A stretch of 64,000 bases of DNA from NCBI RefSeq assembly GCF_004010195.1, contig NC_057754.1:7223906-7287905 (forward strand), in the 5' to 3' direction. The stretch is from Chiloscyllium plagiosum (lineage: Eukaryota). The notes under the pieces were generated by a model, which saw nothing but the letters and a program-made list of their open reading frames with translations, did not search any database and was not told where the DNA came from. Position 1 is the first letter of the stretch. Each line of letters opens with the position of its first letter. A program made the translations under genes and the position numbers. Below are positions 8,061 through 47,100 of this stretch, piece by piece.

Positions 8061-8105
8061 TCATAACTGCTTCACAAATGCTATTTCAGGAATTTTTCCT
8101 TCAGC
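8061..8105 (-). CDS. NXF1: NXF1 exon 21, coding part ([14 protein letters not shown])
   Basis: Acceptor ttttgcag; TGA at 8061-8063; UBA C-terminus. Confidence 0.95.
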   Translation of the reverse strand, partial: AEGKIPEIAFVKQL

Positions 8106-20100: not shown

Positions 20101-23100
20101 CTAATCTGCCAATCCTAACTGAAGTATCTACCGGTCATTCTACCTTCATAGACCTGCAAACATTGACTCCAAGATCAGAAGTGGGGTTGTTTAATGATGG
20201 ATTATCTGAGGATCTGCGAGCACTATGCAACTGTACCTATTTGACATCAGCCAGGACAACACAGCCACTTTACCAGAATTCCAACCAACACACACAATCA
20301 TTCTTTCCACATTGACACTCAGTAACACTATCTACAAGATCCACTGCAACAACTCATCAAGGCTCCTCCAACAGCACGTTTCAAACCTCTTGGAAGGATG
20401 GGGACAGTAGATTCAGGGAGCAACACCATCTCCAAGTTACACACCACCCTAACTTGGAATTATACTGTCATTCCTTCACTATTGCTCGGTCAAAATCCTG
20501 GGGTGGGCAATAAAGGATTGCAACCACCCCATGAATGAGTTACAAGAAGAAATTCAGATAAAGCGTTCGCATGTTGGACGGATATACTCCACTGGGAAAG
20601 ATTCCCATGCTGGCAGGCCAAGTGAAGGAAGGGTAATACTTGTTTACAGTGGAAAATACAGGGAGCGGTGCATTTAGAGAATAACCTCACTGGTTTACTG
20701 CACCATAAGCTGTGCCACATACTGCTAATTGCTACATTCATGGGCCCATTTCATTTCTGTGACAAAACATAAGACGATCGGGTCTTCCCATACAGCATAT
20801 AACAGATCATCACCAAAAGGCAGAACACGTGCACCAACAGAAGATAGGGATAAGTAAAAGGAAGACATGCAAAAAAACTCGAGAGAGAGAAAGGTAAACA
20901 GCAGGTGCAGTCTACGTTTTTGCCATGCCGCACAGTTATTCCTTCATCATCCCTGGGCCATAGTTCTGCAATGGCCTGCCTAACAACACTCGTGAAGCAC
21001 CTTCACCTTATGCCATCCAGCAAATCAAGGAGAAAACTCACCAACCACCTTCTCAAGAGCCAATTCAGAACAGTTAACTAAAGCAGCTTTTACAGGAAAA
21101 TGCTCACATCTCCAGATTTGACTGAATAAAGAAAAAGAAGGTTGAGTCTTCACTTTCTTCAAAATTTGTTCACAGGGTGCAGGTACTGGTATTTATCGTT
21201 CAACCATTTGAGAAGTAGGTGGTGAGTTGCCTTGTTAAAATGCTGCAGTCAGTGCAGCTGAGGGAGGGAGGTCCACGATTCTAACTCTCCTGTAGTGAAG
21301 GAACGGCTAACACAGTGCCACATCAGCTGAATAGGGGCATGGAGGCAAAATAGGGGCATGGAACTGGTCAAAAGACAAGGAGACTTAGCTTTTGAGGGCT
21401 TGACATGTTCCATGCCCACAACTGCCATTGCGTGACGGAGTCATAAAGAAGGGAAGTATGGATGTCCAAGCTGCGCAGTTCCCCCTGCAGAGGAATTAGG
21501 AGCAGAAGGACATGATTTGGCCCCTCGAACCTACTCCAGCAGTACGAACATTGCTGGAAATCCCAGGCAGGTTCAGATATGGGACACCTGTAAGCCCAAC
21601 AGTTTGCTGACACTCAAAATATAGACTGATCCATGAGGAGTGGACACATAGGCAATGCATTTTTCCACCCCCTCCGCCCAGTCATCATTTTGAAATCTGA
21701 ACTGAGTGTCTCCAGGATGAAGGGGGAGAGAGAGGAAGGCTGCAGAAGGTTGCACAAGGAAGTGAGTCAACAGGACAGTCACAGAAAACAATCAGCCCTT
21801 CCACTTACTGTTTGAGTGCTCACATCCACCACAAAGGAGGCTATGTCATGCTGTGTCTTTGGGAGTTCGTTGAGAAAGGCGACAACATTCAGTCTGGTGT
21901 GTTTCAGCAGCTTCGCCCGAAGTGCTATGAGCAAAACAAAACAAAGGGAGATAATTAGTTGAAAGCAAAAATACCCAAAGAAGGGACTCCAGCAGGAATT
22001 ACAAAAAAAAACACATACTAACTCTTGACTAATGAAGGCCTTATTTGGACTAAGGTATATGCTGTCCAAGCACTGTGCCTCCAATGTTTATTGCTGCAGA
22101 GCAATAAAAACAGGGCCCTGTCACATTCTCTGCTTGTGCCACTGAACGCGGCCGCGACAACATGGAAACATTTTGCAGAAACAACATTTCTCACTTGCTT
22201 CATGCAAGGGGAAGCATTGATTTGTGTTTCAACACATGGTTTTTAAAAATTATCTTCCTGGCTGTCTTCTCATATCTCAATATGTTGACACACTCAGTGT
22301 GGTAAACTTTGGCCTCCAGTGTCTCAAGACTGTACAATAAGGATTTCAGATTGCAGCAGGCAGTAAAAGCATTCATTAGCACAGTGTAACTGACCTTGGT
22401 TACACTGCAGCCAAAACCTAAACTGTGCACTTTCCCTTTTCTAAGTCAAACCCTAGGCTTCAGAAACGGTGACAAATGACAAACCCCAATTATTGGGGCT
22501 CAAATGATTGAATCCTCGAGATGTCTTCAGAATCTCCCTTCAGCATTCCCTTCTGCAGGAAAGCCTCTGAGCTCAGGCACTGCAAGCTGTTTATTAGCTC
22601 CTTCATGCAGTGCCCTTCCTGTCCCAACCCAATGTCTGGATATTCTTGCTGTAGCACAACATACAAAACCGAAGCAGTAGGAGGCCATTTACCCCTCGTG
22701 CGCCATCACACCATTCAACATGACAAGCTTCAATGCCTCTTTCATGATTAATCCTCATAGACCTCAACCCCCCCCACTAATGAAAATAGACCCAATCTGT
22801 TTAGTCATTCTTGAAAAATCAATCCCTTCACCTCAGGAATAAGCCTAGTGAATGTCTTTCAAACAGCCTTTCTTAAAAATGGGGATCAAAACTGCACACA
22901 GTACTCTGGATGCACCTCACCAACACGCTGCTCAGTTGTAACAAGACTTCCCGGTTATTAAATTCCAAACCCCTTGTAATAAATGTTAAAATTCCATTTG
23001 CATTCTTAATTTCTTGCTGCACTTACATGCTAACATTTGATATTTCATGCACAAGAACATACAGATCTCACTGCACTGCATTTTTGGGGTATCCCTTCAT

Positions 23101-26100
23101 TTAAATAGGAGTCTTCCTTTCGATTCTTCTGAATAAAGTCCATTAGTGTTATGAAGTATCTGCTTCAATGCCTTCCACTCACTCTCCTCTTTGCTTATTG
23201 TCCAAGCCTGCTTTGGACAACTCTTTCTTCACACCTCTGTAACTGTCCTTTTTAAGTTGGTTTGAGATGGAGGTGTTCTTCCTGAATATTAATTGAAGGC
23301 GATATTAGAAGATCTAAAAGAGTCCGTTCCTGATTAGGTTCTGCAATGTACTGCTCTAAGAAACAATCCCTGATGCATTCCGCGAATTTGTTTTTCATGG
23401 TACCCTTTGCCTGTCTAAACCTGCACTGATATTTGACGATGATCTTCAGTGAGGCCACTCAATCCTGACTTAAACCCTGGTATTATTGAGCAATATACTT
23501 AAATCTAATTTGGAATACTCTACAAGGTTTTTGTTTTTGAAAAGAGCAGTACTACAATTTTAAATAGCTGAGATAAAGCAAAAGCAGTATACTGGTGTTT
23601 CAATGCTCTCTGAAATGGATGGGGCAGCTGAAGGTTTGTGACATGAGGCCTCAAGCGGAGTTCTCTCCAGCCAGCGCAGCCAAGGGTCACTGGGCATTTG
23701 CCCCGATGCAGTTCAAGAGGCAATGTTCCAGTGTAATGCCCATCTGATAATGCTGTCAGGTTTATACTGCTCATCATCTACTCTTCACACTTGCAACCTT
23801 GCAATCTGGCTGCATTTGCTGCCTCCTGAATGTGGTGCTGGAAAAGCACAGCAGGTCAGGCAGTATCCGAGATGCTACCTGACCTGCTGTGCTTTTCCAG
23901 CACCACACTATCTCGACTCTGATCGCCAGCATCTGGAGTCCTCACTTCCTCCTTAGCTGCCTCCACCCTATCCTTTCATCTCGAGAATCTCTTTCTTCCA
24001 CAATTCTTGTCAGGGGAAATTTGTACTGTGAAGAAGTCCTTCCCTTAACTGCTCTCTGCCCCTCTAAAAACTTCAAATCCATTCCCCCGCTAATACCAGC
24101 AACCACTCCTGTTCCTAAACTCACCCCCTGCCAGGTACAATCATCCTGCTTCTTCCTCCTATCTCAGAGTGCATTTGTACACCTTACATGGTATAGCAAG
24201 GTGTACAAATGTGAGGTACTGCCAGCAATTAAACAGCGCTAGCCATAACAGTGGAGCCTAATTCTACTCTCACTCCACATTCACAGGCTCAGCAGATGGT
24301 CAACTAGAAACTGGGCTAACGTTCAGCTTCTCACAGCAGATTCCTGCCCAAGAGATCAGCAATCATGAAAGCTGGGAACATTCTATCCTGCACAACGCAT
24401 GGGAGGGTGCGCAGGGCTGAAATCGGTTGCACGAATGGCTAGGTGGTGCAGTAATGAGAGACACAAACTGCACAGGTTAAGGTTGAATCCCTGGTCTGTA
24501 CGGAGCTAGCAGATCCTATCCAGGGCTGTGACCATGGGCTCAAAGAACATGACACTGGAGTCATCATTTCTCATTACTGTCAGAGACCCTGTGAATGTGG
24601 GTGCTAGATAACAATTACAATACCCCAATGGCAGAAGAACGTTCATACAAGGTCAGCCTCTCTAGTGAGGTTCCACATAGCTGGAATAAGAGAGGAGCCT
24701 GATTCAGCGATTTCCGGATAGTACGGAGCGAAGTCAAAATAAAAGCTTGAGTTGTTTTCAATATTACTCTTATCAGACGGCAGATTATTTTATCACAGGT
24801 AGAAAAGACAGATAAGATTGCAATTGACAGAATACAAATATATCCTGTAAGACGAGGATTCCAGCAAAAACAATGCAACATCTCAAAAAGTACACAGAGC
24901 CTGGGTTTGGAAAGTGGTGCAAGATACAGCAGTTAATATGAAATCCAGCAGGCACAAGTACACGGATGTGCTATACAATAGGATTGTACTGGACTTTATC
25001 ACCTGCTTCCCCGATCATCTGGGTGCTTTGAAACTGAATGACTCATTTTAAAAAAATCAAACATGGAGTGATAACCTAATGCAAAGTTGGCTTTCAGTAC
25101 TTTTCAAATAAATGCCATTTTGTTTATGACACCAATCATCACATGATCGATCGCAAGAGTCTACACCAGATCTTTCAGCTGGATCAGAAGCTAATCTGTT
25201 TAAAAGAAACGCCCTCGTTTGAGTCCTGAGCGTCCGGTCTGAGCCCAGAGGAATTTTCCATAGTTTTGTTTTAAAAATCACAAAGCAAAACGGATTTTAA
25301 TATCTTCTGATATTGATTGATTTGCGATTCACTTTAGATGGAAACAGAGCAACGGTCATAGAGATATACAGCATGGAAACAGACCCTTCGGTCCAACCTG
25401 TCCATGTCGACCAGATATCCCAATCCAATCTAGTCCCACCTGCTAGCACCCGGCCCATATCCCTCCAAACTCTTCCTATTCATATACCCATCCAAATGCC
25501 CCTTAAATGGTGCAATTGTACTAACCTCGACCACATCCTGTGGCAGCTCATTCCATACACACACCACCCTCTGTGTGAAAAGGTTGCCTCGTAGGTCTCT
25601 TTTATATCTTTCCCCTCTCACCCTAAACCTATGCCCTCTAGCTCTGGACTCTCGACCCCAGGGAAAAGACTTTGCCTACTTACCCTATCCGTGCCCCTCA
25701 TAATTTGGTAAACCTCTATTTGGCCACCCACAGTGTTCTTTTAAAGGACAGAATGCTGCATATGAAATCAAAAATCAAATGGCATTTGACTTACTTGGGT
25801 CCTTCAGTCTCCTCACGTTTCTGCTCTCCTTGAAATACTCTCCCAGACTGCTCCTGCTTGGACACAACACATTATTTTCAGGACAGTGAAGAAGTGCAGC
25901 TCTTGCAAGGTGAGGTAATAGCTGCCCCAAGTTGTTTCCTTCACAACGCCACAGTAAAATGTTATGTAAGAATAACCATTTAAAAAAATTCACTCAAGAA
26001 TCTTCATGCTCTCCTTTCAGTTCTGTTTGCTGCGATAATGCACATTCCAGGTACAGAATATTTTCTGCCTAATCAAAGGGGCAGTGTCTCAAGCATCCAT

Positions 26101-29100
26101 AATGCTTGCTTTAAATGCCTCACCCAAACAGTGTTGGCTTGGCATAGGCAATCTTATTGTTCCCACGTCCAGCCAGCAGGATTCTCACAAAGCTTCCAGC
26201 GCCACTGGGAAGGACCAGAGCTCACTGTTGTAACACAATGTGATCGAGTTCAGTACAGAGGAACCTGAATTATCCAAAGCACACAGGCGGGGAGTATTTC
26301 CTTCAGATAACCGAATGCCGGATAACAGCTTGATCTTGCCAGACAATCTGATATTTGGATAATCAAATGCCAGATAATCAAAGTTCCTCTGTAATCAGTT
26401 TTATCATCCCAGAAAGGTGCATAGAAGGGTACATTCCCTCCCTCCTCCCCCTCCCCCAGCATCCATGAAGAGGGACTCATCTTCCTTTCCAGGGGGTGCA
26501 AGTGTGTGAGGGGCAGAGCAGGAGAAGATCTGTGTGTGGGCTGTAGGGGTCACTGTGTATTTGTGGGGGGTGCGGAGGGGAGGAAAAGAGGGAAGGCAGC
26601 ACATGTGTATGTCTGTGCGCATGTATGTGAGTGCGCAAATACGTACCCGGGGTTCTCGTGCAAAGGTGCATGTTTGGGGTATGGGTGACACATGTGGACA
26701 GCATGTGCAGGGATGCATGGAGGTCGTGGGGTGTGTAAGTGGGTGTGGGCCCAGGGCATGTACAGGGTTGCAAGTGCCAGGTGCAGGTAATGTAAGGTGC
26801 TTATGAACCTGCAAATGTGTGCTTGCATTCAAGCCCTGTATCACTCTGAGTTTGCCTGAAGGTCACAAACCTGGCAGGGTTCTGTGGAGAAAAGGGAATA
26901 CTGAGCGAGCAGCAAGCTGTATCGTGGTAGGCATCCAGCAGCCCTTGCCGGTCTGTTGAATCATAAACCGAATAGTACCTACAAAGGGAAGAACAACAAA
27001 GTCAGGGAGTGGCAACAAAGTGGCAACAGTCAGCTTGGTTTGGATTATTGAAGTCTCTGATATCCCAAAGTGACACTGAACAGTTCACACTAGCTGCTGT
27101 CTCACTCATTCTTTGGTCTAAAATGAGGTGCTAAATGAATGAGAGACAGGAGGCTGACTTGTCTGCAGACTACTTTGTATCAGGAGCTGGGCAGACAGAG
27201 CAATCAATTGTAATAAACTCTCCAACACAAGGAGTACCTACTCTTGATAGACAAGCCACTTTTGGAAGGATGTTGTGAAACTTGAAAGGGTTCAGAAAAG
27301 ATTTACAAGGAGGTTGCCAGGGTTGGAGGGTTTCAGCTATAGAGGGAAGCTGAATAGGCTGGGGCTGTTCTCCCTGGAGCATCGGAAGCTGAGGGGTGAC
27401 CTTATAGAGGTTTCTAAAATCATGAGGGCATGGATAGGATAAATAGACAAAGTCTTTTCCCTGGGGTTGGGGAGTCCAGAACTAGAGAGCATAGGTTTAG
27501 GGTGAGAGGGGAAAGATATAGAAGGGACCTAAGGGGCAATATTTTCATGTAGAGGGTGGTACGTGTATGGAATGAGCTGCCAGAGGAAGTGGCGGAGGCT
27601 GGTACAATTGCAACATTTAAAAGGCATCTGGATGGGTACATGGATAGGAAGGGTTTAGGGGGATATGAGCCAATTGTTGGCAAATGGGACTAGATTAGAT
27701 TGGGATATCTGGTCGGCATGGACGAGTTGGACGGTCTCTGTGCTGTACGTCTCTATGACTCTATTTAACCTGATATATCAACTCTAAAGATACATGAATC
27801 CATAAATCATTTTATGAAAAACATTTCTTCTTCTGGGACTTTGATCCCTTTCTTATATTTTATTTATTTTCCACAAAGGGAGACAGACCACCTGAAAGAC
27901 TTCAAACACAGAAGAGACTAGACAGAGTTCAGACCTTTGTTTTGTTGCTCAGTAATTCTCCAGACTGCAAACTATTTTTAACTGCTCTACTCAGCATGCA
28001 CGTGTTGCCTTCTGTTTTCCTTTAAGGGGAGCAGGAGGCCATTCAGCCCTTCAAGCCCGTTCAACCATTCGATGAGATCACTGATGATCTCTAGCCCAAC
28101 TCCAGATACGATCTTTGGCCCATATCCCTTATGACCTTAACTTTACAAAAATGCAGCTAGAACATAGAACATTACAGCGCTGTATAGGCCCTTTGACCCT
28201 TGATGTTGCACCAGTCTGTGAAACCAAATTGAAGCCTATCTAGCCTACATTATTCCATTTTCAGCCATATCTTTATCCAATTACCACTTAAATGCCCTTA
28301 AAGTTGGCAGGCAGTGTGTCCCACACCCCACTACTCTGAGTGAAGAAACTGCCTCTGACATCTGTTCTATATCTACCACCCCTCAATCTATAGCTATGTC
28401 CCCTCGTGCTAGGCATCACCAGAGGAAAAAGGCTCTCACTGTCCACCCTATGTAACCCTTTGATTATATGTCTCAATTAAGTCACCTCTCAACCTCCTTC
28501 TCTCTAATGAAAACCCCAAGTCCCTCAGCCTTTCCTCATAAGATCATCCCTTCATACCAACATTCTAGTAAATCTCCTCTGAACTATTCCAAAGCTTCCA
28601 CATCCTTCCTATAGCTGTGTCAGATTTAAAATTAACAACTGATCTTTCCTTCACTGCTGTTTGTGGAAGAGTGCCAAACATCTACCACTCTTTCTGTGGA
28701 CAAGTATTTCCTAACATCTCTCCTCAGTGGTCTGGCCCCAATTCTCAGAGTATGCCCCTAGTTCTGGAATCCCCCAACAGTGGAAGTGGTTTATTATCTA
28801 CCCGGTCTTTTCCTGTTTAAAAGAAACAAGGGTGCTATTCCTTTAGCTTCAGTCATGACTTAGAAGTTAACAGCTCCTTTAACACTGAAGTGTTGCGTAA
28901 TTGTCTCTTGATAGGCATATTGTGAAACATGATCTGACACTACGCCCCATAAAGAGATAAAAGGACAGGCCACCACAAGTTTGGCCAGAAACAGGTTTTA
29001 AGGACAGCTTTGGGAGGAGGTTGCAAATGTACAGAGTCAGAAGTGATAGAGATAGAGAGGTTTCAGGCTGACGTTTCAAAAGCTCACAGCAAAGGCATGG

Positions 29101-32100
29101 CTGCCAAAGTCAGAGTTACAACTGTTGACAGAACCGAGAGCTCAGAGAGCTTGGAGGAACTTTTAGAGATAATGCAAAGGGGAAAGGCCATGGAGAGATT
29201 TGAGAATTAGGGTGCATACTTTAAAATCCAGGCGTGGTCAAACTGGGAGTCAATGTAGTCATGACGACTGTAGGCCTGATGGGTGAAAAGGACTTGGAGG
29301 GAAAGGTTGTAGCCTGGGACAAGCTCAAGTCCTGCAGCCTAGAGGGCAGAGGTCAAGGGAAAGTTGGAATTGTCAAGTCTATAGACAACTAAGGCACAGA
29401 TGAGCTCCTTTAGCAGTATAAGTACAGAAATAGGGCAAGGCCTGACACTGTTATGGCAGTGGAAGCTAACAGCAACTAGGCAAAATACTGTCAACACACT
29501 TTGGTGGTGTCACATTACAAATCATCACTGGAAGTTACTGAAGCACAAGGTGACCAGACGTTTGGCTCAAAAACCTTAGCTGAAAGAGGAAAACCTCCAA
29601 GCATAAGCCACGCTGGCTCAGCAACACCCAGAGAACATCAGGAGAATGAAATCTAATGGACACATATAAATAGATATCACACCACAGTCAGGTGGACAAA
29701 CAGAAGACAGAACAAACGATCATGGAATGACAAAATACAGGCACAGCAGGTTAACCTTTGTTGTTTTTAATTTCAGATTTCTAGCTTTTTTCTTTTAAAA
29801 AAAAACAATTTTCCCTTGCTTTTGGTGAAATTGGCTCCAAGAACAAGTTGGGAATAGAAGAATGTGCTGGGTTACAATGAATAGACAAGCGGATGACACA
29901 ACTTTTAATGGACTATTGCATCCAGTTCAAATCTGAGATTCACTGTTTTAAAGCAAAGGATGGCCTGGAATTGGTCGAAAGGACAGAATTATATATGTAT
30001 CTGACAACAAAAAAATCTGTTTTTAAAAAGTTCCTTTTTCTTTATGTATAAAGATTGACACACATCTGATTGCACAGGTACTTACTGCTGTATGAATCGT
30101 GATACGAGCACTTTGATTTCATCTGTACCAAAGTAACTAGCCTGTTAAAAGAAAACAAATAGCGCATTAAACACTATATCCACACTTTACCTAGCGCTAA
30201 TAATCACCGTGATTCTTGCATACCTGACAAACTTGCTCAAAAGAACTTTGAACACAGCATATCTTCAACTTCTTACATAGTGCCTTTAAGATCTCAATAA
30301 GGAGGTGGTGTTTAGGTTAACATCACATCCAATCCAGGACGCCTGACAGTACAGCGCTCCATCAGTTGAATGCCAGAACAACAGGATAGACTTAAATATT
30401 AAGGTAGTGAGTAATACTGCATACAAGATTCTGGGTTTAAACTGAGGTTATGCGTAGCTACAAAGGCAAAGGAGTTACGATAAATTCAAATTGAAACACT
30501 AGCTCACAGTGTGGAGGAGTGTGCCTGATTTTGTTTGGTCTGGTCTCATACTCAGTCGCAACAAATTCAAATTCCACTAGGCTAGCTGAAGGGTTTTAAA
30601 TTCAATTAATTTAAACTGAAATAAAACGCTCAGCTCATGAAAAGTGATCAGGGGACCACTGCATTGTCTCAAAATAGCATCCAGTTCAAAGTTCTTCAGA
30701 ACAGGAAACCTATTGCCCTTACTCAGTCTGGCCTGCATGTGACTCCAAACCCACATCCATGTGGTTTACTCTCAAGTGCCCTTTGAAACAGTTTGCAAAG
30801 CCCCTGAGACATAGAGCTCTGACCACTAACTGCCCGAGGGGAAGAGGCAATAGACAACAACAAAAAAAAAACTGGCTTTGCCAGAGTCACTCACATCCAA
30901 GACCGAATAACAAAAAGAAAGCGCTTTCTCAAGATCACACTTTCGGGAAGGATGTTAAGGCTTTCATAAAGATACAGAATAGATCTGCCAAATTAGTTCC
31001 AAGGATAAGGAATTTCTGTTTCACAGATAGACTGGTGAGCGTGAGAGGTTGAGGAGGATGGAGCTTTGATAAATTGAAAGGGGTTTAAACAAAGGAAATG
31101 GACAGAAAATGTACCCATTGGCAGAGAAGTCAGGAACAGACTTTAACTGACTAGCAAAAGAAGTAACTGCAACATGTGTAAAAAAAGACATTTTAAATGT
31201 TGAGAGTGGTTAGGATTTGAATGCACTGTCTGAAAGTGTGCTGGCGATCTCAGTTAGAGTTAGTCAAAGTGTTCTTGCAGAGAGCTTGCATGAACATGAC
31301 AGGCCAAATGGCTCCCTTTGATACTGCAACCAATATATGATAGATGGCTTCTCTGGTACTTGCAGCAACTGACTCCTGTCTGCCCTGTAACATTCCTGCC
31401 ACCTCACCATGTGATCTGTATGCATTATGATCCCAATGCTCAAGTCTTGCTTGATGCTCAAATTTGTCATTGCTTCATTTCAGGCAAAATACTATAGAGT
31501 CTGTGAAGTACTCTATCCAAAGCCCTTGTGTTGCTCCTAGATTGTAGAATCTAACACCATACCCCAACTGGGTCATGAAATCGACTCAGCATTACCTTTT
31601 GGCCTTTGTGCACTTGATCAAATCTGCAATCTACCCAGAGGTGCTGTGTCATTGACAGTCTCACTGTCTCAACCTGCATCCACCAGATCTTCCACAACAA
31701 GGTCATTTTCAGTACAAGATATCCACTTCTATCAAAGCAGTCTATTCCTACCATACCTTGCACGAAGGAAGCGTAGTTGGAGTCTCAACGTCAAAGGAAA
31801 TGGGAGGTGGGAGTTCATGACCGTCCTATAGGTAGAAAACCACTGAGCATCAGGAGATCGCAGTATAATTCAGTCCTTTCCATTGCCAACCCACCCAAAA
31901 TTAAACAAAAGGCTTTGATATTGGCTTTGTAAAACCAGTTCTATGAAGTCTGTGATCCTGCCAATCTTGCATTGAAAGGTGAATTACAATCCAATAGTTC
32001 TAAATTAAATCAATGAAGACAAGTGGGAAATATAAATAATCACATTACAGTAAATTCAAAAAGACCTGTTTCACAATTGCACCCCACGCCCACCCCCATC

Positions 32101-35100
32101 CCACCAGTATCTTTATTTCAATTCAATTACCGCACCCAGCTCTCAGGGATACTACAAACACCGTATTAATTTCGAGAAACCAGTGAGTGATGTACTTACC
32201 AGTCTGAGTAACTTTGGAAATTTTTCCCTGACAGCACTGTCAAACATTGCAAAGAGGGAGAGAGGTGAAACAAATGAAAAGGGAAAAACATGAGAAAACT
32301 TCCACAGATGAAGAAAGTGGCCCCACATTTGCCTTCCCGCCACCCCCACGAGACGGACTAAAACAAAACCAACCTGATTCTCGAATCTTCGCTAATCTAA
32401 TCAATGTTAAATCTGGACGCTGAAGTCCAGAGAAGTTCCTTTCCCAGCCACAAGGACATTTTCTAAACAGTCCCTCACCAGGAAAGGAGCCTCAAAAAGA
32501 GGTAGGATCTATTTTGATAAAAATGGGGGAGAGTGCGAAATTTTTGGAAGTAAAATGAAATAGAACCAAAAGGATAACATTTAACATTTTGAATAGTGCT
32601 GCCTTTAGAATCGATTTTTCAGGAAGCTGGCGTTTCAGTTGAAATAAAGGTCATGCTGGTTTGTGATGAGAACTTTAACCCACATTCCACACCTTTTGTC
32701 CTGGCCTGGCATTGCACAAGTGGAACACTCTTATCAATAGCTGCCAAATGTTTGAATGGAACACGGTCAGTCAGCAGCAGGCCCCATAAACAACTCAATA
32801 GGATTACTCTCTCACATCTGCAATGCACTCACTACTCAGTAGCAACAGACCAGTGATGGCCTTTTAAGTGCTGCTCTGGAATCACTGTTTGCCACAACAG
32901 TTTGTGAAACTGCATAATTCCCTTGAGAATATAAAGCTGGCGTGGGATAATGCATACTTGCATTTGTAGCCTAACAGAAACTTGGTTCATCTTCACAGTG
33001 CTGAAAATGTGTTGCTGGAAAAGCATTCCTGAAGAAGGGCTCATGCCCGAAACGTCGATTCTCCTGCTCCTTGGATGCTGCCTGACCTGCTGCGCTTTTC
33101 CAGCAACACATTTTCAGCTCTGATCTCCAGCATCGGCAGTCCTCACTTTCACCTTCACAGTGGCAGAGTGCATGTAGGGGTGATTCAGGTTCCATGTTTT
33201 GTAGGAGATGGCACGGTCTAGGATGTGTTATTGGAAGTGATTCTGCTGCTTTGCGTCTGGACATCGGTCATAATTATGTCTAGTAATTGCCATAAATGCA
33301 TCTAAAAGATCAGAATGTTTTGAAATGCTGGAAAAATCAAGCATTAATTGGTTTTAGGTCAACAATTAAGTCTACTGGAGCAGCAAGCTTTTTGTTAGTC
33401 CTATTTAGCAACATTAAAAACACTTACAAAAGCTAAATGCGGCCAAACTTACAGCAATTGTTGAGGTAAATTACTTCTGGAAGCAGGACGAGAAAGGGTC
33501 TCTAGACAGGCACTCACACAAAGTTTCAGTGTAAAGTGAAGTTAGCTTTCATATCGCTGCACCACATTGTCTGTTACTAAAGAATCTCATTTCATTTTCA
33601 TCTGCTTCTGGATATGGGTGCAGCAGACTCATTTCTTTTTAAAGCAAGTGCCTGGAATAACTAAACTGCCCAAACAATTTTAATAATGTGGAATTTACAG
33701 CAACTTGGCGCTAGTCCACACCACATTCCAGCAGCCACACTGAATACTGAGAGACTGGAATTCATTCATTTACGAAACGAGGACACAAACTATCTTGGGA
33801 GTCATCAGCTCACGTGAATAACAGCAAAGCTAAATCTGGGATGCATGGGTGTTTACTCTTAAAAAGCCTTAGAAGGTCAACTAAAAGCAACAGTGCCTTC
33901 ATTCTCCCGCATATTCAGTTTCCGTTTACTTACCAAGCTATCACTCACCTGCGCAGAGGCGACATTTAACAGGATCAATGTTGGGAAAAGAATACCAACA
34001 CTCTGGTTAGTTGGAATTGGGTGGGGAGAAGGATTAAACCAGTGTGATATCACAGAGGTGCTAGCTATCAACTCCACCCAAATTATTACCGGACATCCGG
34101 AGGGAACAAACAAAAATTAACAATTGGTTGGCAAATCTAGATTTTTTTTTAAAAAACCTACAAGAAAGGTCTCATAAGTAGATCTCAAGAGTAACAAAAC
34201 GAGGCAAAAGCCAGTGAAACAGAGAATGATAACAAAGGCAAGGGAAGAGAACTAGGGGAAAACACAGTGGATGAGTTAGGATGAGAGTAGACTGAAGGGC
34301 TGTTGTCCAAAGAACACCTAATTATACAACCACTCATTAAAATTGGTCGTATTATATCATGACATCTTAAAATAATTTTTAAACTACTGATGTCTTGTCA
34401 AGTCTTTTGTGATAGGATTCAATGAGCTTTCCTTCCTTCCCAAAGGTTTGTTGTTAAATCGGTTCTGAAAGATATTTCAACATGCCCACAAAATTGGCAT
34501 TTTCCTTTGTCAAAAATACAGTGAATACAATGTATTGGGTGCACGATTTTCCTTCCATCAAGCTGCTTTGCCAGCCAGAAACTCAGCTAGATTCCCAATA
34601 CAGATGCAAAAGCCAGGGATCTGCCAAAGCCACATGACCACAGGCCACTACTTTGAAGGCCAATGCACGACTGTGCCTGTCTTAGGTTGTTCCTCGCTCG
34701 AGGAATCTTACCCGTCACTGGCTAACCAGTCTTCTTCACTGACCAACAAAAATCCACATCCACTTCGCAGACATAAGGACGGACACAGGCAGTGGTTCAG
34801 ATTTTCTTTTGTTTCTTCAAAATTTGATGCCAAGCAAACTGCTACTGTAGGTTTGCAATTCAAACTTCATCGGGTAAAGAGCAACTGGCTTATTACTGTG
34901 ATCAGTGGCTTTTGAGATCAATCAAAGCTTTTTAGGAATACAAGATGCTGGCTGGGAATCTTTTGGGTAAACAATAGTTTCTTGAGTCTTGAGGCATCTA
35001 GCACTTCACAACCTCTAACCACAGCATAAAAAGCACAAATTTACCTGTTGCAAATTTGAACAGGAAAAACTATACAACTAGGTGGTCTTTGGACTACGGC

Positions 35101-38100
35101 CCTCACATTCTGAGACCCTAAAGGAGACTGATTAGAAATGAATCCATGGTCTTTCACAACAAGAGTTGGGTCTACAGGGTTTTGGTAAAGCTATTACAAA
35201 CAGAATAGGTTATTAACAGCTTGCCTATGGGGAAAGATACTCACTTAGAGCATATATTTATACATGAAATATCAACACCACATCTATATTAATGGTTATG
35301 CAAAAAATAATTTTGTTATCTCCCAATATTACTGATATTCAAAGAAATTAATGAGAAAATTAGAATATTTTTAAATAGAAGTAAGTTTAAGAAAATTATA
35401 TTGTCTGTCATTTGAGGGGCTCCCTGGTACAAAACCACAGCAAGGGGTCCTTCCACTGACCTGACATATGTAGCCTGATCCCGGAAGCTGTCACACAGAG
35501 GGTTCCCATCCAACCACAGCTCTTCCAGCTTGAAGCCTTTTATTTTGTCCAGATCTCTTTCGGATTTGAGCTGAACAGAGATTTAAGTTGCATGTTCCTT
35601 AAGGTGACCACAATGATTTCACTGATATGAAAATAAAACCTTGCCTTTGCAACCTCACTCAAAATGCCTGTGCTACCTATGAACCAGAAATTTCAACTTG
35701 AGATCATTTTCCAAGAATAAGTAAACTATTTTACAAAATGAGTGCATCGCGGCCAAAAGTCCTTTCTTGAAGTATGCGACCTTCATTTTCCATAATACAA
35801 AGTGATACAGGCACTCATGAGTTACATCAATTAATTTTCTCGTAGATGCTCCGTAAAATTGCACAGCTGTATCCAGGAGTAATAGTGCGTGCATCCATCT
35901 CTTACAGAAGTACATTTTGAAAAAATCTTCTAGTGTCTTTTTCTATTAGTCTCTCAAGAACCCAAAGTTGATAAAAGTTAAAATTTATTTGCCCCAGAGT
36001 CACTGCAGCAGAGATTAAGCCCTCAGATGGCAGGATTGCTTTGAGGAGAGATCAAGGAAAGTGGATCTCTATTCTCTGGGATTTTAAAAAAGTGACTCCA
36101 CTGAAACTTATAAAATCCTTACAGGGCTTGACAGGTTAAATATATAAAGGATCTTTCCCCTGGCTGGTGAATCGAGAGGACATCATTTCATGATAAAGGG
36201 GCAGGCCATTTATAATTGAAAAGAAAGAACATTTTTGAAAAGAAATCGGTGATTCTTTGAAATTCTCTATCAGAGGGCTATGGAAGCTAATCATTAAGCA
36301 GGTTTAAGACAGAAATCAATAGGTTTCTGGAGACTAAAAACATTAAGGAATATAGTGATGATGTACGAAGATGACATTGACAAAGTGATCCTCCATTATT
36401 TAGAATTTTTATTGTTCCTAATAAAAAGCAACAGTCAAAACCAGTGAACTTTAAAAACTACCAGGGAAGGTTGGTAATTGAGAATATTGATGAATTCCTC
36501 TAACTCTGCTTCTCTGCAAGTCCAAATAACCCAATACGTCAATGCAAGTACAGAAAGCATTGTTACTATGTGACTGCATCTCATCTGATGAAGGAATTAA
36601 TGGGAATACAAAAGAATTCTTTGAGAAATCTCAAAAACAGCCCTCGGCAGAGTAGTGGTGGTGGTTTGGAGGTAGAATGGGGTGATATATTTCGATCACA
36701 GTTCATATAACAATAACAACTAAGCTTCTGGCCATTGGTGCAAACAGATACTCACCTCGTTTCTGGAAAGGTTTAAAATTTTCAAACTGGGCGCTTTGGT
36801 GATCAGGTCTGCCAGGTCATCCAGTCGGTAGAGCCTGTTATTGCCCAGGTTGAGCGAGAGTAACTGTAAAAACAAGAGGAGTCACAGCTTACAATTGTCA
36901 AACAGACAAGGGCAGAATTCTGAATAGGAGGGCTAGTGGGCAGAATTAGCCATTTTAATGAAACAATCAGCAGTGGCCTGTTAGTTCTACAGTATTGTTA
37001 CAGTCCCCAGTTAGCTATGCATTACAGTATACACAAAGCTACAGAAAGTTCCTCTGCAGTATTTTGCAAACACCAGAGGTTGGCTGCTTCAACCTTTCCA
37101 TTGTTATAGAAAATACGAATGAAGTGTTCCTCCTCCCACAATTTATACCCTGCATACCTCTGGAATGTTCTCCTCTATGATTTTGATGACTGCGTTCATG
37201 GAACTCCTTCTGTTTAACACCACTTCAATATTCTGAGAGACGAGATCTGAGCAACCAAACAATAATTGTTAGGAATCAGAAGCAGTTATTACAATTCATC
37301 CAAGGCCTATACGCAATGATGCAAATTGCCACCCAGCTTAAGGAGGGGTGGGGGGTGGGGGGGGGGGGGGCCTCGGTAAGTGCTTCTACTACCTAGTCAT
37401 TGTGTCACCCAGCCACACAATTCGTGGTCTGTGCTGGGTGAAAGGGTCTCAATCTCCACAGCATCAGCAATTCATCGAACAGTCCTCAGTTCACGAGTGA
37501 GGTGTCTTTCGATACAAGGGCGGGTGGGTCTAAAACAGGCAAACTGGATGGAAGCATTCTTATCTCTTCCAAGCCCACCGATACTGCTGCAAAAACACTA
37601 GCCCTTTCCATGAAATAATTAGCCCGGGACTCCATGAGGTGAGTTTCCAGAGCTTGAGAAAACCCATTAGGCTGAGTTAATTCAAAACACAAGATGTCGT
37701 TGCAATACTGAAATGACTAAATGGTCACCTGGAAATGAGTTGGCTGGCCACCTCCATTCAAGGGCAACAAGGGACGGGCAATAAATGCTGCCAGCCAGCA
37801 ATGCCCACATCCCACAAATGAATAAAAAAAATGAGTCAGAGCTGAGGTCTTTTGAAAAACTCAAAATATCACGTTTCGATTTGGGGGATAGGGGCAAGAG
37901 AGAGAAGTAAAATTATTTCTCAAGTGCCCGGTTTCACCTGCAATAGAACTCAGAAAATGTGAGAACTGGGTGAATAGAAGGTAAGAAGTAGGGGAAGAAA
38001 ACTGGGTAGATTGCAATGTTTTTCATGTAAGTTTTTCTTAACTATCTCAGGCAGCTTCATAGCCATAAAAAACATGGAACCTAACAGATGACAAACAAAC

Positions 38101-41100
38101 CTCAAATTCATACCTGGGTCACTACGTATGCTGTTTAGATCTAGGGCTTGCTGTGATCCATCGTAACGTTTACTCATACACTGCTGCAAATTAAATGGTG
38201 ATATGTCAATGAAATGAAGGAACAGTCTTAGATAGATCAACTGACCACTTGTTGCTTAGCCCGAAGTTACAAAGTCATGCAAGATGTTTTCTTCGAAAGG
38301 TGTCAATTCCTGGCCAAAGCAACACTAATCCTGCCTCTTTCTGCATCATGTTGGAGTGAATCTATAATCTAAACTGTCACTCTAGTACAGTAGCAAGGGA
38401 TAGGACATGGTTAGAGATACTTTTCTTTAAATGAGATGCTAAGCCAAGGCCTTACCTTTCCTCTCAACGACACCAACTGACACTGCGACACGACAAGAAG
38501 TGAACACAGAACAGAACAGTTTCGCAGAGGAATAGGCACTTTCGCCCACCACGTCTGCACTGACCTTAATGCCACTCTAAGTTAATCTCATGGGTCTGAA
38601 TATGATCAATATCCCTCTATTCTCTGCCTGTCTGTCTCAATGTCTCTTAACCTTTGTTACCGTATCTGCTTCTACCTCCCCTGTTGACAGCAAGTTCCAG
38701 ACATCAACTACACTCTGTTTAAAAAAAACTTGCCTTGCATATCTCCTTTAAACTTTCCCCTTCTCACCTTGAACCTAGTATTTGACATTTCAACCCCAGG
38801 AAATAGACTCTGCACCCCACCATTGCCTCTCAATGTTTGAAGATGAGAACACTTTCCTGATGTATGCTAGCATGCATCCCTCAATCAAATACAACTTGAT
38901 CATCCTTTCGACACAAAAGACTCTCAGCTCAACATCCGACACTGCAGTTTACGCTCAAATCTTAACTGCCATTAACGCCTGTAACAGCATCACCTCAAAA
39001 GTAGCACATTAGTTATGAAGTGATTGGATGGAGTGCAAGATGCTGTATAAATGCAAGCTCCTTGTCTGCAATCCTTGTGTTGCTTTCTGGTATAATAGAT
39101 AACTCTTCCTGGTCTTGTCTATTACATCTTACTTCTGTTTTTAAGTGCATTGAAAATAAAGGCTCAAAACAAAACTAGCAACTTCCTCAGCAAAACTTCT
39201 GTTTTTCTTCATAAATTTGGATTTATTAACAACTAGTTGGTCATTGGCCAGCAGCAGCTGAAATGTATTTTTAAATCAAAGTCCAAGAAAGCTTTCCTTA
39301 CCTTTATGTGTTCAATCTCCTCTGATTTGAGCTCATTTGAAACGGAAGATGGCGGCACCGAAGAACTAATGATGATGGCCACCTGAAGGAAATCAAAATG
39401 CTTGCTTGCAATCAAATTTAGGATTTTGCCACTCTCGGGAAGCTCAAAGATCTGTGCGCCCTCTCCTTAAATAAACTTAACAGTGCATTGCCCACAACCC
39501 TCTTGGGTAGAGAATTCCAAAGATTCACAAACCTTTGAGTGCAGACATTTCTTAAGTTCAGCCCTAAATGATCACCACCCTATCATGAAGCCATTTTAGA
39601 CTCCCCAGTCAGCTCAAATTTTCTCAGCATCCACCCGTGGAAGCCCCCTTCTGGATTCTCTGCTGGAAAACAGAAAAGCTTCTGCTTCACATCACTGTGC
39701 AGTTTGAGGACAGGACTGGGACATGGTTGGGCTGACCTCCACCGTGGTCCAGCTTAGTGAGACCCAACTGTCTGGACCTGGTACCCCAGGGGAATGACCT
39801 GATGTCTGGAGGGGTCAATTTTAAAACAATGGCAATTCTTGGTACTCCTGCTGTGGATCCAGATGTGGTTAGGACAAACAACACAGCAAATTTGGTTTTG
39901 TTACATCAAAAGGAATTTTTTTTTAAACCACGGGCACAACACGTTACTGTCAGATATATATCTATATAGCCACATACCCTGTACAAATCCTTATCAACAA
40001 TTCTTCTCGATATCTGCTTTAAAGCATTTGCAGCTGTAGAATCTTCAACATAGAATACTGCCTTGTTGCCATCATAGTGAAACTGTGGAAAGATAGATTT
40101 CATTACTGTCATCGAATTATCAAGTACAAATAAGTCTCTTTCATAAATGTAGAAGAGAACAGAAAGTCATTGAGTGAGATATGTCAGAAAAATACAAAGA
40201 GAGGGGCGATTCGGCCCATTTCTGTTCTCACTCCCCTGTTCGTTCCCTGCAGCCCCACAAATTTCTATTTCAATGGACTTCTAAATTATGGACATAGAAA
40301 AATACAATACAGGAGCAGGAATAAACCCTTCAGTTTCTCAAGCCTGCACAGCCATTTCATAACATCACGGCTGACCTGTGAGTAAGCCCAATTCCACAAT
40401 CCAACCTACCCCAATAACCTAATTCTTTTAAGGAATGGCATCTCAGATCATTATAACTCACCAAGGCATAATTAGTGGTAGCTTAAGATTTTCCATAACT
40501 ATCTGGCCTCTCCTAAACAAGGCCATTTATAGGAGTTGTTGAGTGAAAACCTCAAGCAGTGGGACTGCCAGTGGTGGTGGTGGTGGTGGGGAGGGGACAC
40601 TGACAAGTTAAATGTCAATGCTGACCAGATACTCGACAACTCCAAAAGAGAAAACTGCTCACCTCATTCAGTTACATCCCAATCAATCCCCTGACACTCC
40701 AATACCTACCCTGCTGCTGTTCTGAGCCACAGATAATATTCCATATCCATTTTGCATAGTTAGCTATGCTGATGTATGGCAATGTGGAGAAATTCAGCCT
40801 GGATGATGACATGAGACTGGCGCTGAAAAGTGAGCATTGGCTCGATATAATCGGTTTCAGTTGTTGCCTCTGGCTGTTGCCTCATTGTTTAAGTGATTTT
40901 AATTGGTTGCCTCAATATCTGGCTGATGATAAAGATTAAAACTCTTTTACAGAGCATTTGGTAGTGCAGCCTTTACTGTGACATCACCAATGTTAAAAAG
41001 CAATCAGATTCCCTCTGCATTGTGTCTGCCTGAAGCACATGGGTTGCAGCGGTTCAAGGGGGCAGCTCACCACCACCTTCTCCAGGGAGCAGCTGGGGAT

Positions 41101-44100
41101 GGGCAATGGATGCTGGCCAGCCAGCAGCATCCACATCCTGCGAGTAAATTTTAAAAATGAAATCTGCCTATATTAATAGATTTTTTACAACAGGTAGTGA
41201 CCATTTGAATTGATTTCAACGCAAGGCAACAAATCAGTCATGAGAACTAAAGTCATGACGGCAGCAGCACTCAGGATTTCCAAGTGACTATTGATAAACT
41301 ACCTGGACTAAGTTTAAAAATTCATTCATTCCCTTCCCATTTTCAGCTAGAATTGGCAAAATTGAACATACTTTACATCTGGATGGGGCAGGGGTGCAAA
41401 GTTCAGACGGTAATAGGAAGTTTTTTAAAAAAGGAGGACAGTCTTACACTGACAGCTCGTATACAGAGTCCTAGTGGTAGGTAACTTCTGAGCAACCTGT
41501 TCCAAGATATTATTATACACCTCCTGTAGTAGGTTAGACTTGAACCCAGGTCTCTTGGCTCACAGGTAGGAACACTATCTTTGGTAGATGTGTTAAGTGA
41601 GGGATGAACAACTGATTTCATAATAGGGTGTAATAATAAGGCCACTGCACTAGTAATCCAGAAGCCAGGCTAGTGGCCTGGGTACACAGGTTCAATCCCA
41701 CCATGATAGCTGATGGCATTTAAGTGTGATTAATAATAAAAACAACTAGATTCAAAATCTGGTGTCTGTAATGATACCATAAAACTATCAACTGTCTTAA
41801 GGACTCATCTAGCTCACTAATGTCCTTTAGGAAGGAAACCTGCCATATATTACCAGGCACTATCTACATGGTGGGACAGCATTGTGGCTCAGTGGTTAGC
41901 ATTGCTGCCTCACAGCGCCAAGGACCCAGGTTCGATTCCAGCCTTGGGAGAGTGTGTGGAGTTTGCATATTCTCCCAGTGTCTGCGTGGGGTTTCCTTCC
42001 ACAGTCCAAAGATGTGCAGGTTAGGTGGGTTGGCCAAGCTAAATTGCCCACAGTGTCCAGCAAAGTGCAGGCTAGATGGATTAGCCATGAGAAATGCAGG
42101 GATAGACTAGGGATACTCTTCGGAAGGTTAGTGTGGGCTCAATGAGCAAAATGGCCTGCTTCTACACTGTAGGCTTTCTATGTCATGTCTATGAATGTAC
42201 ATATGGCTCCAGACACATAGCAACATGCTGACTTTCAACTGCCTCCTTAAAATGGCCGAATAAGCCATTCATTCAAGTAATTAAAGATGGGAAATAATGG
42301 CCTTGCTGGTAATGCCCACTTCTCTTTTAAAAATGATAAGAAGCAGCCTGAAGAACTTTTTCCCTTAAGTGGCCAAAAATGAAAACTTTTGGGAACCACA
42401 AATGATATTCAAAAGTTTGTAAAATGACAAACTTCTCTAGGAGAATGCACAATTTGCTTAGAAGATAAATATGTGCATCTTAAGAAATCACATTAAAATG
42501 TACAAAACTCTGAATATCTTTCAGCTCTTCAAAAGTTATAACTTTATCAGTAAAGCCAGCAAAACAAATTAACTCCAGATAGAGAATTCAGGCAATTTTT
42601 CAGCTATTGGCTCTCAAAAAAAGCTCTAATATAATTCATCCAAGCTGTATTAGAAACAATAATGGTCACAACCAAAGAACTCTTCAATAAACCAAGGAAA
42701 TTATCTATAACCATGGTGTAGCAACATAATTTGAACTGGATTACAAAGAGCACAATGATACACGTCATTAAAATAATCATTTAAAACCATAAAATGCAGT
42801 ATAGGAATTCATCTTTTGTATCCATATAAAAAACACTCCACTCTTAAATTTTCAACTTTCTTTTCAACTGGAAAACATACGTTGCCAATAAGTTGTTAAT
42901 GACAAACATGTGGCTCTGAATCTGCGGGTCATAGATCAATCGATTTAAGTAAACCAATGCCACACCAAACACAATGCAGAATGATTTTTCTCCAGCAGGG
43001 CTAGCTTCCCAAGGTTAAGGAATTTTACTCCTCAAAGGGGAGATGCACACCTTCTTCCCATCACTGAACCTCATTTCAAAACTGCATGCACAGCAGGTAC
43101 TGCCTTTGTGCATGACGTCAAATGTAAATGCTACAGAAAAACTAGCGCTTCCAAATAAACCTGTTGTACTACAACCTGGCGTTGTGAAATTTTTAACTTT
43201 GTACACCCCAGTCCAACACCAGCAACTCCAAATCCTACATAAAAACATATTGCATTTGGAACCATGCGTGCAAGATTTCTCAAATGAGCAAACATGCGTA
43301 GTTGACCACTGTCACCGGCGTCAGCAAACACACCAAAACAAAAAGTGGCAAACTCCTTTGGTTGAATGTGTGGAGCTGCATTCCTTCACATTTGTTGTTG
43401 AGGAACTAGCATTACCAGAAGGACGAGGACAACAGCTGTGTTGTTTTAATGTGCAGCATTTTGCTGAGAAAAACAATCACATTTTTACTGTAAGTATTGA
43501 GTTATCTTGGGTGTTTTGTAAACAGTACAATTCTTCAAGGTTGTTATCACTTTAGCTATATATTGACTTAATGTAAAAGGACGTCTCACTCTGACCTCTC
43601 ATGCGTTGTTTATTTTGCATTTATATTTTGCACACACTGTGTAAGTCAAGGATAATTAGGTACATTAGTCAGGGGAAATTTAGAGTAATAGGGTAGGGAA
43701 ATGGGTCTACGTGAGATGGGTCTTCGGAGGGTTGGGGTGGACTTGTTGGGTCAAATGGCCTGTTTCCACATGGTAGGGATTCTACGATGATTCAATAATC
43801 TGTTCTGAGATTTGATGCAATAATACTTTGCAATTTTCTGTCTTACATTTACGATGTATAGTTACAAACAACTTTTTCAGTATATTCTTTATTTTAAAGT
43901 AAGTGGTTGCTAACACTAACAGCTAGAGAGGGGAGAAGCAAGAGAACCTTTAAAACAAAGTCATTGAAAGGTGCAAATTGTATCAGTTGAGCAAGATCTG
44001 AGACAATGAGCTCAAAATATCATTCATGAGAACATGATGGCATAAGACCTATATTCAAAATGTATGGGGGAAGATGATAGAAAATGTTTCCTTATCTCAG

Positions 44101-47100
44101 TGGTAAGCTTTAAAATTCAATGAAATGATGGGGGACAAAACACTATAACCAGTAGGGACAGCCCCATTTGTGAATGACAACTTGATGATTAATCATTACC
44201 TCTAAGGGAACCCAATCAGAAATTGGGTATACACTATTTTAACTAATCCAAGACTGACCATGAACTGCACATGCTGCACATGGCAATAAAGGTTCCTGTC
44301 GTACGTGTTTACTAACTAAATAAATCAACAAACATTGCCAAAACTGCTCCCCACCCCCCAGCTCAGTCAGTCAACAAGATCATTACTGATCTAATAGCCC
44401 AGCCGCAACTTCCTGTGCTATCCCTACATTCCTTCAGGGTCCAAAGATCTGTTCAGCGCTCAAATACATTGCATATCCACAAGTCTCTAGGACAGCAAGG
44501 TCCAAAGATTCATAATCCTCTGGGTGAAGAATTTCAGTCTTAAATAATGAGTCATTCATACAGAGACTGTTACTAACCCTTCGCCTGTGTCCAGAATAAA
44601 ATCACTCAGCATTCACCCAGTCAAGCCCCTTAAAGCATCTTACATGCTCCAAATGTACCATCTCTTCAGAGAATACACGCTTTATCTAATTTACTCAGGA
44701 TACCTTTCATGGGAATTCAAACTCTGCCCGCAACACCCCAAACATTCCTACTGTCAGTACAACTAATATTTAAAGCAAGTTGTTTAAATTGCCCCAGAAT
44801 GGTACAATTAGTTATGCTGTACTGTTTTGGCATATTTTGATCAGCACTAGAACAGATCAATGGATCTCTAACCAAAATTCAGTTAATCGGGTCAGACTCT
44901 AGTGACAAGAGTTTACTGTATGATGCTATATAAATTATATAACAAAACTGGACGAGCTACATTAATATAGCGGCTACAAGAGCAAGTAAGAGTTTAGGAA
45001 TCATAGAGTCATAGAGATGTACAGCACAGAAACAGACCCTTTGGTCCAACTCGTCCATGCCGACCAGATATCCTAAGCTAATCAAGTCCCATTTGCCAGC
45101 ACTTAGACCATATCCTTCTAAACCCTTCCTATTCATATATCCATTCAGAGGCCTTTTAAAATGTTGTCATTGTACCAGCCTCCACCACTTCCTTTGGCAG
45201 TTCATTCCATACACACACCACCCACTGCATGAAAAGTGACCCCTTAGGTCACTTTTAAATCTTTTCCCTCTCACCCTAAACCTATGGCCTCTAGTTCTAG
45301 ACTCCCCCCACCCCAAGGAAAAGACCTTGTCTATTCATACTATACATACCCCTCATGATTTTATAAACCTCTATAGGGTCACCCCTCAGCCTCCGACACT
45401 CCAGGGAAAACAGTCCCAGCCTGTTTAGCCTCTCCCTGTAGCTCAAACCCTCCAACCCTGGCAACATCCTTGTAAATCTTTTCTGAACTGTTTCAACTTT
45501 CAGAACATCCTTCCAACAGGAAGACGACCAGAAGTGTCACAATATTCTGAAAGTGGCCTAACCAATGTCCTGCATAACCGCAACATGACCTCCCAAATCC
45601 TCGTTCACTAACTCACCTCCTGACTCCCCAAAGTCTGTCCAAAGGACAAGTCAGGAGTGTGATGGAATACTCCCCGCTTCCCTGGATGAATGCATCTCCA
45701 AAACCACTCTCAAAGCTTGACACCATTCAGGACAAAGCAGCCTGTTTGATTAGCATCAGAACCACAGAAAGCCATTCCCTCAATCATCAATGATGAGCAG
45801 CAGCAGTGTGTACCACCTACAAGATGCACAGCAGAAATTCACCAGAGCTTCTTTGACCTTCTAAACCCACAACCATTCCCATGTGGAAGGAGAAGAGCAA
45901 TAGAATACCACCACCAGACATATGAATACCTACCTCTTGCAGGCTCCCCTCCAAGCCTCTCACCATCCTAACTTGGAAATATATTGCTATTGCTTGAGTG
46001 TCACTGGGTCATAATTTTGGAACTCCCTCTCTAGTAATATTAAGATTGTCCCGACAGCACACAGATTCTGGCAGTTCAAGGCCGGAGCTCGCCATCACCT
46101 TCTCAACTAGGTATGGGCGATAAAGGTTGGCCCAACCAGTCATCACCCACAAATTAATTTTAAAAACAAAAACAAACATCTACGCTACATTAAATACATG
46201 AGACTTAAGTTCATCTGAAGCCACCAAGCTGTGCCAGGATACCATGTTTCTGACAGCCTGCTCATTGACCTTGGGATACAGAGTCAAGCTCAATCTATGC
46301 TCTGCTCCAAATTCCAAACACCCAGTTTCCAACAGAAGCTTCTGAACAGATTTGGATTGTAAACCACTCGCCTTGGTTCTTAACTCCACATTTTGAGTGT
46401 AGTGAATCAGTCTGAGAAAAATCTAATTTTACTGACAATATTTTAACATTTCTCACAACAACATCATAAGTGCCATCACTCCTACCTGAACAGGAGTAAA
46501 GGGAACACTGCACATATTATGCATGTTTGACAAAAGCCAGGATTTATCATATTTCTTTCCAAAAGGAATCTAAAGAGAGAACAAAAATATTTTGTCATTT
46601 TCATACCTAATATTTAACTTTACAAAATCCATTTGCAAAAACTTTCTAAATTAACACTTGGATAAATATATTCGGATAATAACACAAAGACTCAAGCTAT
46701 TGTATTATACCAAAGTTTGAACTTGACAAGGCATAGAGTTCAGCATGGAATGAATGCAGTAAAGTAATGACACCATTCTCCAATGACTTGGTAGTTAAAT
46801 GCACTTCATAATGTTGTATACTGTGTATAACTTAAATGCATAGAGTTACTCAGTTTCAGTTCTAATCCATACTGCATTAGTAAAGCACAGAACAGGGCGC
46901 ACATTGGTTGTGTTAAGTGTATCTCTTTCTGGCACAGTTTACATGGGAACAGAGTTGAATGGGCTGGGGCTTTCCCTCTGTCAGGAGTCGGGTAGCAGGG
47001 AGCAAAGATCGTGAGAGAAAGATTCTGGGAGCAAGCAGCAAGATAGAAAACAGGAAAACTGTTACAAGTTCTCAAAAGGAACCAGACTTATGAACAAAAG

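Follow-up and report, generated by a model that had tools for sequence, protein, structure and literature searches.

The 64-kb window, by which we mean the whole stretch of DNA that was analysed, carries on its minus strand coding exons 2 to 21 of NXF1 (8061..54702; 611 codons and a stop), which were assigned by protein match and are separated by 19 introns that all have GT..AG borders. Their product is identical to Chiloscyllium plagiosum NXF1 (P0054) at 611/611 residues, to the coelacanth protein at 478/609 and to that of a mammal at 417/600. A genome search with a shark NXF1 gave 15 matches, all at this one locus, in a stricter first look that weak paralogues may have escaped, and the peptide encoded by exons 7 to 10 clustered with nine other chondrichthyan sequences in a tree (support 96/91). 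Exon 10 (35461..35570, minus strand, 110 nt), placed by protein match, encodes the end of the LRR domain, and exon 11 (32200..32236, minus strand, 37 nt) was placed by spliced joints. Between them lies intron 10 (32237..35460, minus strand, 3,224 nt, GT..AG), also bounded by spliced joints, which directly follows the last LRR exon and is partly retained in RNA. The exon upstream of the hairpin described below matches human NXF1 in PDB 3RW6 (E 1.8e-16). Exon 1 was found neither in the window nor in 40 kb upstream, where 6,473 N are present, and it may lie within these assembly gaps; the number 10 is therefore based on homology of the flanking exons (human-orthologous numbering). With this numbering, the earlier note was right to place its element in intron 10 of a shark NXF1.

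Several other features of the region were recorded. Between exons 1 and 2, some shark isoforms (P0005, P0062) include an optional exon (about 63371-63469, minus strand), with which the hairpin-bearing intron would be counted as intron 11. A search with a partial probe found neither STX5 nor TMEM223, the neighbours expected from human, in the window, 40 kb upstream or 20 kb downstream. Intron 10 also holds a high-copy 160-nt repeat with inverted self-similarity (about 32995-33155), 1.5 kb from the hairpin, and fragments that by eye resemble the tail of a LINE reverse transcriptase lie in NXF1 introns at 49149-49796, 45170-45536 and 25433-25675 (minus strand). Near the start of the window, at 217-820 and 1165-1664, an open frame is repeated in tandem and the assembly has a gap of 500 N.

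The reverse complement of 34658-34744 (minus strand) folds into an 87-nt hairpin that looks like a single half-CTE unit and is a putative NXF1-binding site; it starts 716 nt past the intron-10 donor and ends 2,421 nt ahead of the acceptor. All the stems named in the earlier note, together with the AGUGAC/AAGACA loop that they enclose, were found in place. From the outside inwards, these are an outer stem formed by GGUCAGUG (34744-34737) and CAUUGGCC (34665-34658), then GACUG (34731) with CAGUC (34673), GCC (34722) with GGC (34677), GGGU (34713) with ACCU (34687) and UUCCUC (34705) with GAGGAA (34695), all on the minus strand. Folding and RNAalifold place AGUGAC (34714..34719) on the 5' strand of a 6x6 internal loop, and folding places AAGACA (34678..34683) on its 3' strand; the latter is the motif that is conserved in the NXF1-binding loop according to the accessible text of PMC4330393. 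A conserved core (34675..34722), delimited by pairing across the shark copy and the two divergent copies L020 and L012 described below, consists in order of the GCC/GGC closing stem, the internal loop, the GGGU/ACCU stem, an AA/A loop, one G-C pair, a 1-nt bulge and a 6-bp apical stem. The hairpin also contains a sequence resembling a 5' splice site, CGG/GUAAGA (34706..34714), that adjoins the internal loop, and a like feature is described in the accessible part of PMC4338338. No spliced joint at this site was seen among the joints listed in shark transcript contigs.

The hairpin has a minimum free energy of -32.4 kcal/mol (z -3.63), which none of 200 shuffles equalled, against a z of -1.48 for the plus strand of the same region. 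The single-sequence minimum adds two pairs (GU/AC) within the internal loop, and keeping the 6x6 loop fully open is less favourable by 2.3 kcal/mol; RNAalifold on the three cellular-type copies (shark, L020 and L012) leaves the loop open. In wider context, the mean pair probability of the stems was 0.96, 0.67 and 0.80 with flanks of 50, 100 and 200 nt, respectively. When intron 10 was scanned in 157 windows (step 20, no window being in exact register with the hairpin), two windows elsewhere fell below -3.63, as did a third at 32500 with a z of -5.2. Since other windows of the intron fold as well or better, the case for the hairpin is its sequence match and its position, not its stability. These windows are also what could be said for a chance hairpin or for an inherited but nonfunctional remnant, a reading that we regard as very improbable considering that hundreds of millions of years have left all 14 core pairs and the two strands of the loop intact and that intron 10 is still retained. 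Separately, a strong single-copy hairpin that buries a donor-like site was noticed at about 32440-32490 (minus strand; z -3.1 to -5.2), some 200 nt upstream of the acceptor of intron 10. Rfam models gave no match across the 64 kb at gathering score, and relaxing the search to E values up to 10 returned just two weak snoRNA matches, neither of them on the 87-nt hairpin.

That hairpin is single copy: a DNA search and two patterns gave one match in the 3.56-Gb genome, with 0 control matches. A pattern of 21 fixed letters taken from the shark core was then run on viral and metagenome collections. In the viral collection it found only three loci. All are 3' ends of retroviruses, beyond env, with an env-like frame upstream (by eye) and two units each; one of them (L003) contains, letter for letter, the viral CTE string that the earlier note had quoted. 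In the alignment to the outer arms of the type D CTE, the 5' arm of the shark hairpin is identical to the first viral unit at 24/29 positions and its 3' arm to the second unit at 18-19/22. The similarity claimed for the flanks is also real: upstream, 13/18 positions agree with viral unit 1 versus 6-8/18 with unit 2, and downstream 5/8 agree with unit 2 versus 0-1/8 with unit 1. At all three loci, the viral closing triplets pair completely (3/3) when taken crosswise and at 2/3 within a unit, and the viral flanks are closer to those of the shark than to those of L020. The published SRV-1 half-CTE primers have the same two arms, and AAGACA is given as the conserved loop sequence in the accessible text of PMC4330393. 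The way in which arm and flank identity is split between the two viral units is the pattern expected from an internal duplication of a host unit in the virus. Viral capture and duplication, as suggested by the earlier note, fit this pattern; the idea was, however, not new, as both steps are already proposed for the host element in the accessible part of PMC4338338.

In the metagenomes, the same pattern found 17 loci, 15 of which appear retroviral by eye, judged on reading frames and on the repetition of cores. These fifteen provirus-like loci (L005-L011, L013-L019 and L021) fall into about three sequence groups and show CTE-like cores, many in tandem, after frames that by eye are pol- or env-like. 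A further match, L022, was rejected as a CTE: it is a chance match in a bacterial cell-shape operon gene, without the fold. The other two of the 17 loci have the architecture of the shark copy. L020 (353-1592 and 2495-2543) is a fragment of a divergent NXF gene in which exons 7 to 10 are present and the equivalent intron contains a CTE. Its four NXF exons of 70, 89, 108 and 110 nt have the exact sizes of shark exons 7 to 10, with AG/GT borders, and Pfam LRR_NXF1-5 was detected on each of them, with scores under the curated cut-off for the individual exons. The L020 CTE core lies 908 nt past the last donor (743 in shark), and its read-through stop comes one codon after exon 10. L012 (562-622, minus strand; CpG ratio 0.34) is a single CTE, and no NXF exon was found within its 2,436 nt.

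The peptide encoded by L020 is identical to that of the shark at 56/125 residues. Compared with 143/143 vertebrate NXFs, it shows 40-51% identity (median 46), versus 59-100% (median 77) for the shark peptide and the same set. Its branch in the NXF tree measures 2.0 versus a median of 0.08, and its attachment point is uninformative since the branch is long and the tree contains no outgroup; the panel contained no cyclostome or invertebrate sequence. The CpG ratio of L020 is 0.74 versus 0.30 in the window. In a profile search with L020, the named rows were all vertebrate among the 120 of 545 matches listed, a representative-sequence search returned five matches that are apparently unrelated repeat proteins, and Atlas gave an NXF cluster. 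From its sequence, we infer that the host of L020 is a non-vertebrate animal.

Across shark, L020 and L012, 42/42 cells of the 14 core pairs are paired, against 36-58% in slid controls, and RNAalifold returns the same fold for the three sequences. Four of the 14 pairs change on both sides in a compensatory manner; this set has three rows that were chosen by a shark-derived pattern, and 5/500 shuffles reach its score. The covarying apical stem lies outside the selecting pattern. The divergent copies act as natural compensatory variants, in which the loop and the closing stems are fixed in sequence and the apical stem in shape only. The full architecture is present in 3/3 cellular-type copies, 0/6 viral units, 0/17 provirus-like units and 0/59 chance matches. 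These comparisons bear on whether the shark hairpin could be the relic of a retroviral insertion into the intron, as its high identity to the type D viral arms and the existence of retrovirus-like elements with related cores (15/17 metagenome loci) might suggest. Such an origin is largely refuted and hardly credible any more: the hairpin is a single copy of a single unit, an element sits in the same intron in L020 and, according to the accessible part of PMC4338338, in mammals, zebrafish and coelacanth, and the apical architecture that it has in common with L020 and L012 occurs in 0/23 viral or ERV units. Moreover, in a search with 8.5 kb (40 of 4,361 candidates scored), the matches listed at other loci were all on the 160-nt repeat and none on the hairpin.

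Four of 24 listed runs were compared over 31700-37300. Three of them are transcript contig sets carrying three organism labels (X1, X2 and X7); they carry spliced joints for introns 8 to 11 and were therefore taken as RNA. The fourth, the raw-read run X20, gave 0 reads there. X7 comes from a relative, with an identity of about 96.7% (78 differences over 2,363 nt), and spans the hairpin, where the differences listed include no indel. An intron-10-retaining transcript, whose detection the earlier note had proposed as a check, was found together with the spliced form in 3/3 informative sets, in data that do not separate nucleus from cytoplasm. Contigs containing exon 10 continue past the hairpin into intron 10, for about 2.3 kb, at depths of 20, 17.2 and 19.4, and the spliced intron-10 joints have depths of 30.8, 19.5 and 46.7 in the same three sets, which corresponds to rough retained shares of 0.39, 0.47 and 0.29, contig depth being a poor measure of level. 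A distal intron-10 contig reaches exon 11 in X2 and X7. Intron 11 has a depth of 0 in 3/3 sets, and for intron 9, X2 and X7 give patchy coverage but X1 a depth of about 8-10.5, which indicates that pre-mRNA contributes to the signal.

Translation of the retained form continues from exon 10 through 48 intron-coded residues (35316..35460, minus strand) to a stop at 35318-35316, which places the hairpin in the 3' untranslated part of the retained RNA. The predicted short protein would have about 386 residues if exon 1 supplies about 10. The intron-coded tail varies in length, with 48 residues in shark, 18 in human and mouse (as given in the accessible literature) and one in L020. Rodent brain produces a short NXF1 protein of 356 residues, according to the parts of the literature that were available. 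Short NXF1 forms that end soon after exon 10 (P0011, P0002, P0049) share a cluster with named bird proteins; in birds, the accessible part of PMC4338338 reports that no CTE was found.

Further into intron 10, a candidate U1 decoy pair (33928..33951, minus strand) consists of CAGGUGAGU (33951-33943) and a donor-like site 15 nt later, and was recognised by its likeness to a mouse sequence. CAGGUGAGU is the sole CAGGTRAGT in the 64 kb and the top-scoring internal donor in the 19 introns, and it belongs to the sole close pair found there. A mean of 1.22 such 9-mers is expected by chance per window (about 0.03, by scaling, for this strand of intron 10); with one expected in the window by chance, the U1 site is a lead only. 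By eye, an AG and a branch-point-like word about 55 nt upstream of the pair could define a small decoy exon; a published study of decoy exons names NXF1 in its reference list only.

These sites bear on a different view of what the hairpin does, namely that it binds NXF1 but mainly controls splicing and nuclear detention of intron 10 together with donor-like U1 sites, so that most of the retained RNA would stay nuclear or be degraded, with export and the short protein being minor. Such a role is compatible with an orthologous CTE and seems to us possible rather than likely. It would account for the donor-like site inside the stem being kept in shark, L020 and L012, for the exact mouse U1 9-mer in the only close pair of donor-like sites, and for a tail peptide that is not conserved (1 to 48 residues). 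It also agrees with mouse intron 10, which contains a U1-dependent chromatin-retention element, NXF1-enChr (accessible text of bioRxiv 10.1101/310433), and with mouse stem cells, in which the accessible literature describes intron-10-retaining RNA as mostly chromatin-bound. Against it stand the chance expectation of the 9-mer, the ordinary fold of the U1-pair region (z about 0) and L020, where no comparable U1 site was found within 900 nt after its CTE. Furthermore, human and zebrafish elements do drive export in reporters, as stated in the accessible part of PMC4338338.

Altogether, sequence comparison supports the shark hairpin as an orthologue of the CTE that mammals, zebrafish and coelacanth have in intron 10, and by analogy we give a probability of roughly 85% to its being such an orthologue with the same NXF1 feedback as in mammals and zebrafish. 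As in those animals, NXF1:NXT would use its RRM and LRR domains to bind the loop with AAGACA and would thereby license export of the intron-10-retaining mRNA. High NXF1 would then divert its own transcripts from full-length protein, and type D retroviruses would carry a duplicated form of the host unit. The autoregulatory loop of which the earlier note spoke is shown for mammals in the accessible literature, where mouse NXF1 shows very heavy crosslinking inside intron 10 of its own gene and a tagged copy reduces the amount of endogenous protein; for the shark it would hold by extension. Zebrafish retain intron 10, and the zebrafish element supports NXF1/NXT-dependent export in human cells (PMC4338338, accessible part). 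The accessible parts of PMC4330390, PMC5170612, PMC4782049, PMC5737842 and PMC6097662 were also drawn on, in addition to PMC4330393 and bioRxiv 10.1101/310433 cited above.

Taken alone, the shark copy makes the element at least as old as the jawed-vertebrate ancestor, the previous minimum being the ancestor of bony vertebrates, and this shift is expected rather than surprising. The jawed-vertebrate date given by the earlier note stands as such a minimum; as a date of origin it is probably too young, as L020 points to something older. We consider it likely that the NXF1 intron CTE predates vertebrates, with a hairpin in the same intron of an invertebrate ancestor, and that the shark copy belongs to a series that also includes L020 and possibly L012. 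The element would then be an ancient animal feedback device, perhaps combined with a U1 decoy in vertebrates, that was lost or replaced in flies and worms and later taken by retroviruses from a vertebrate host. If L020 is from an invertebrate, as its divergence suggests, it becomes very difficult to question that the retroviral CTE came from a host.

The shark copy is real and probably unreported, and the kind of element to which it belongs is already known. We found no report of a shark or invertebrate NXF1 CTE, nor a mention of one in lamprey, in a literature search that was thin on subscription journals. The cellular CTE of NXF1 intron 10 reportedly goes back to Li et al. in 2006, and Mamon and colleagues are said to have treated the retained intron of nxf1 in 2013, in work that may cover further taxa. 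The reports for zebrafish and coelacanth to which the earlier note referred do exist: the accessible part of Wang, Rekosh and Hammarskjold (2015, PMC4338338) describes the element in mammals, zebrafish and coelacanth, and neither sharks, other cartilaginous fish nor lamprey come up in that part. What this analysis adds is evidence of retention, covariation and a sign of a pre-vertebrate origin.

The closest known system is this cellular CTE, which in the accessible text of PMC4338338 agrees with the shark element in gene, intron, place nearer the 5' splice site (as in human, zebrafish and coelacanth), single loop, donor-like sequence beside the loop, retained intron and stop soon after exon 10. 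The shark element differs in its cartilaginous-fish host and in an intron-coded tail of 48 versus 18 residues, and it is known from sequence and transcripts. The mouse NXF1-enChr, as described in the accessible part of its report, shares the 9 nt of the U1 site exactly and, like the shark, has another donor-like site, downstream of the CTE, at a spacing of 14 nt versus 15 nt in shark; the shark pair, compared without alignment, is an element separate from the hairpin and lies mid-intron, whereas that of mouse lies 'towards the 3' end'. With the type D CTE (MPMV, SRV-1; half-CTE complex in PDB 3RW6), the shark hairpin has both loop strands and the GGGU/ACCU stem in common. The viral element, however, lies after env and is duplicated in tandem, its two loops being paired crosswise, whereas the shark element is one unit inside a host intron, closed by a short apical stem and not two-fold symmetric.
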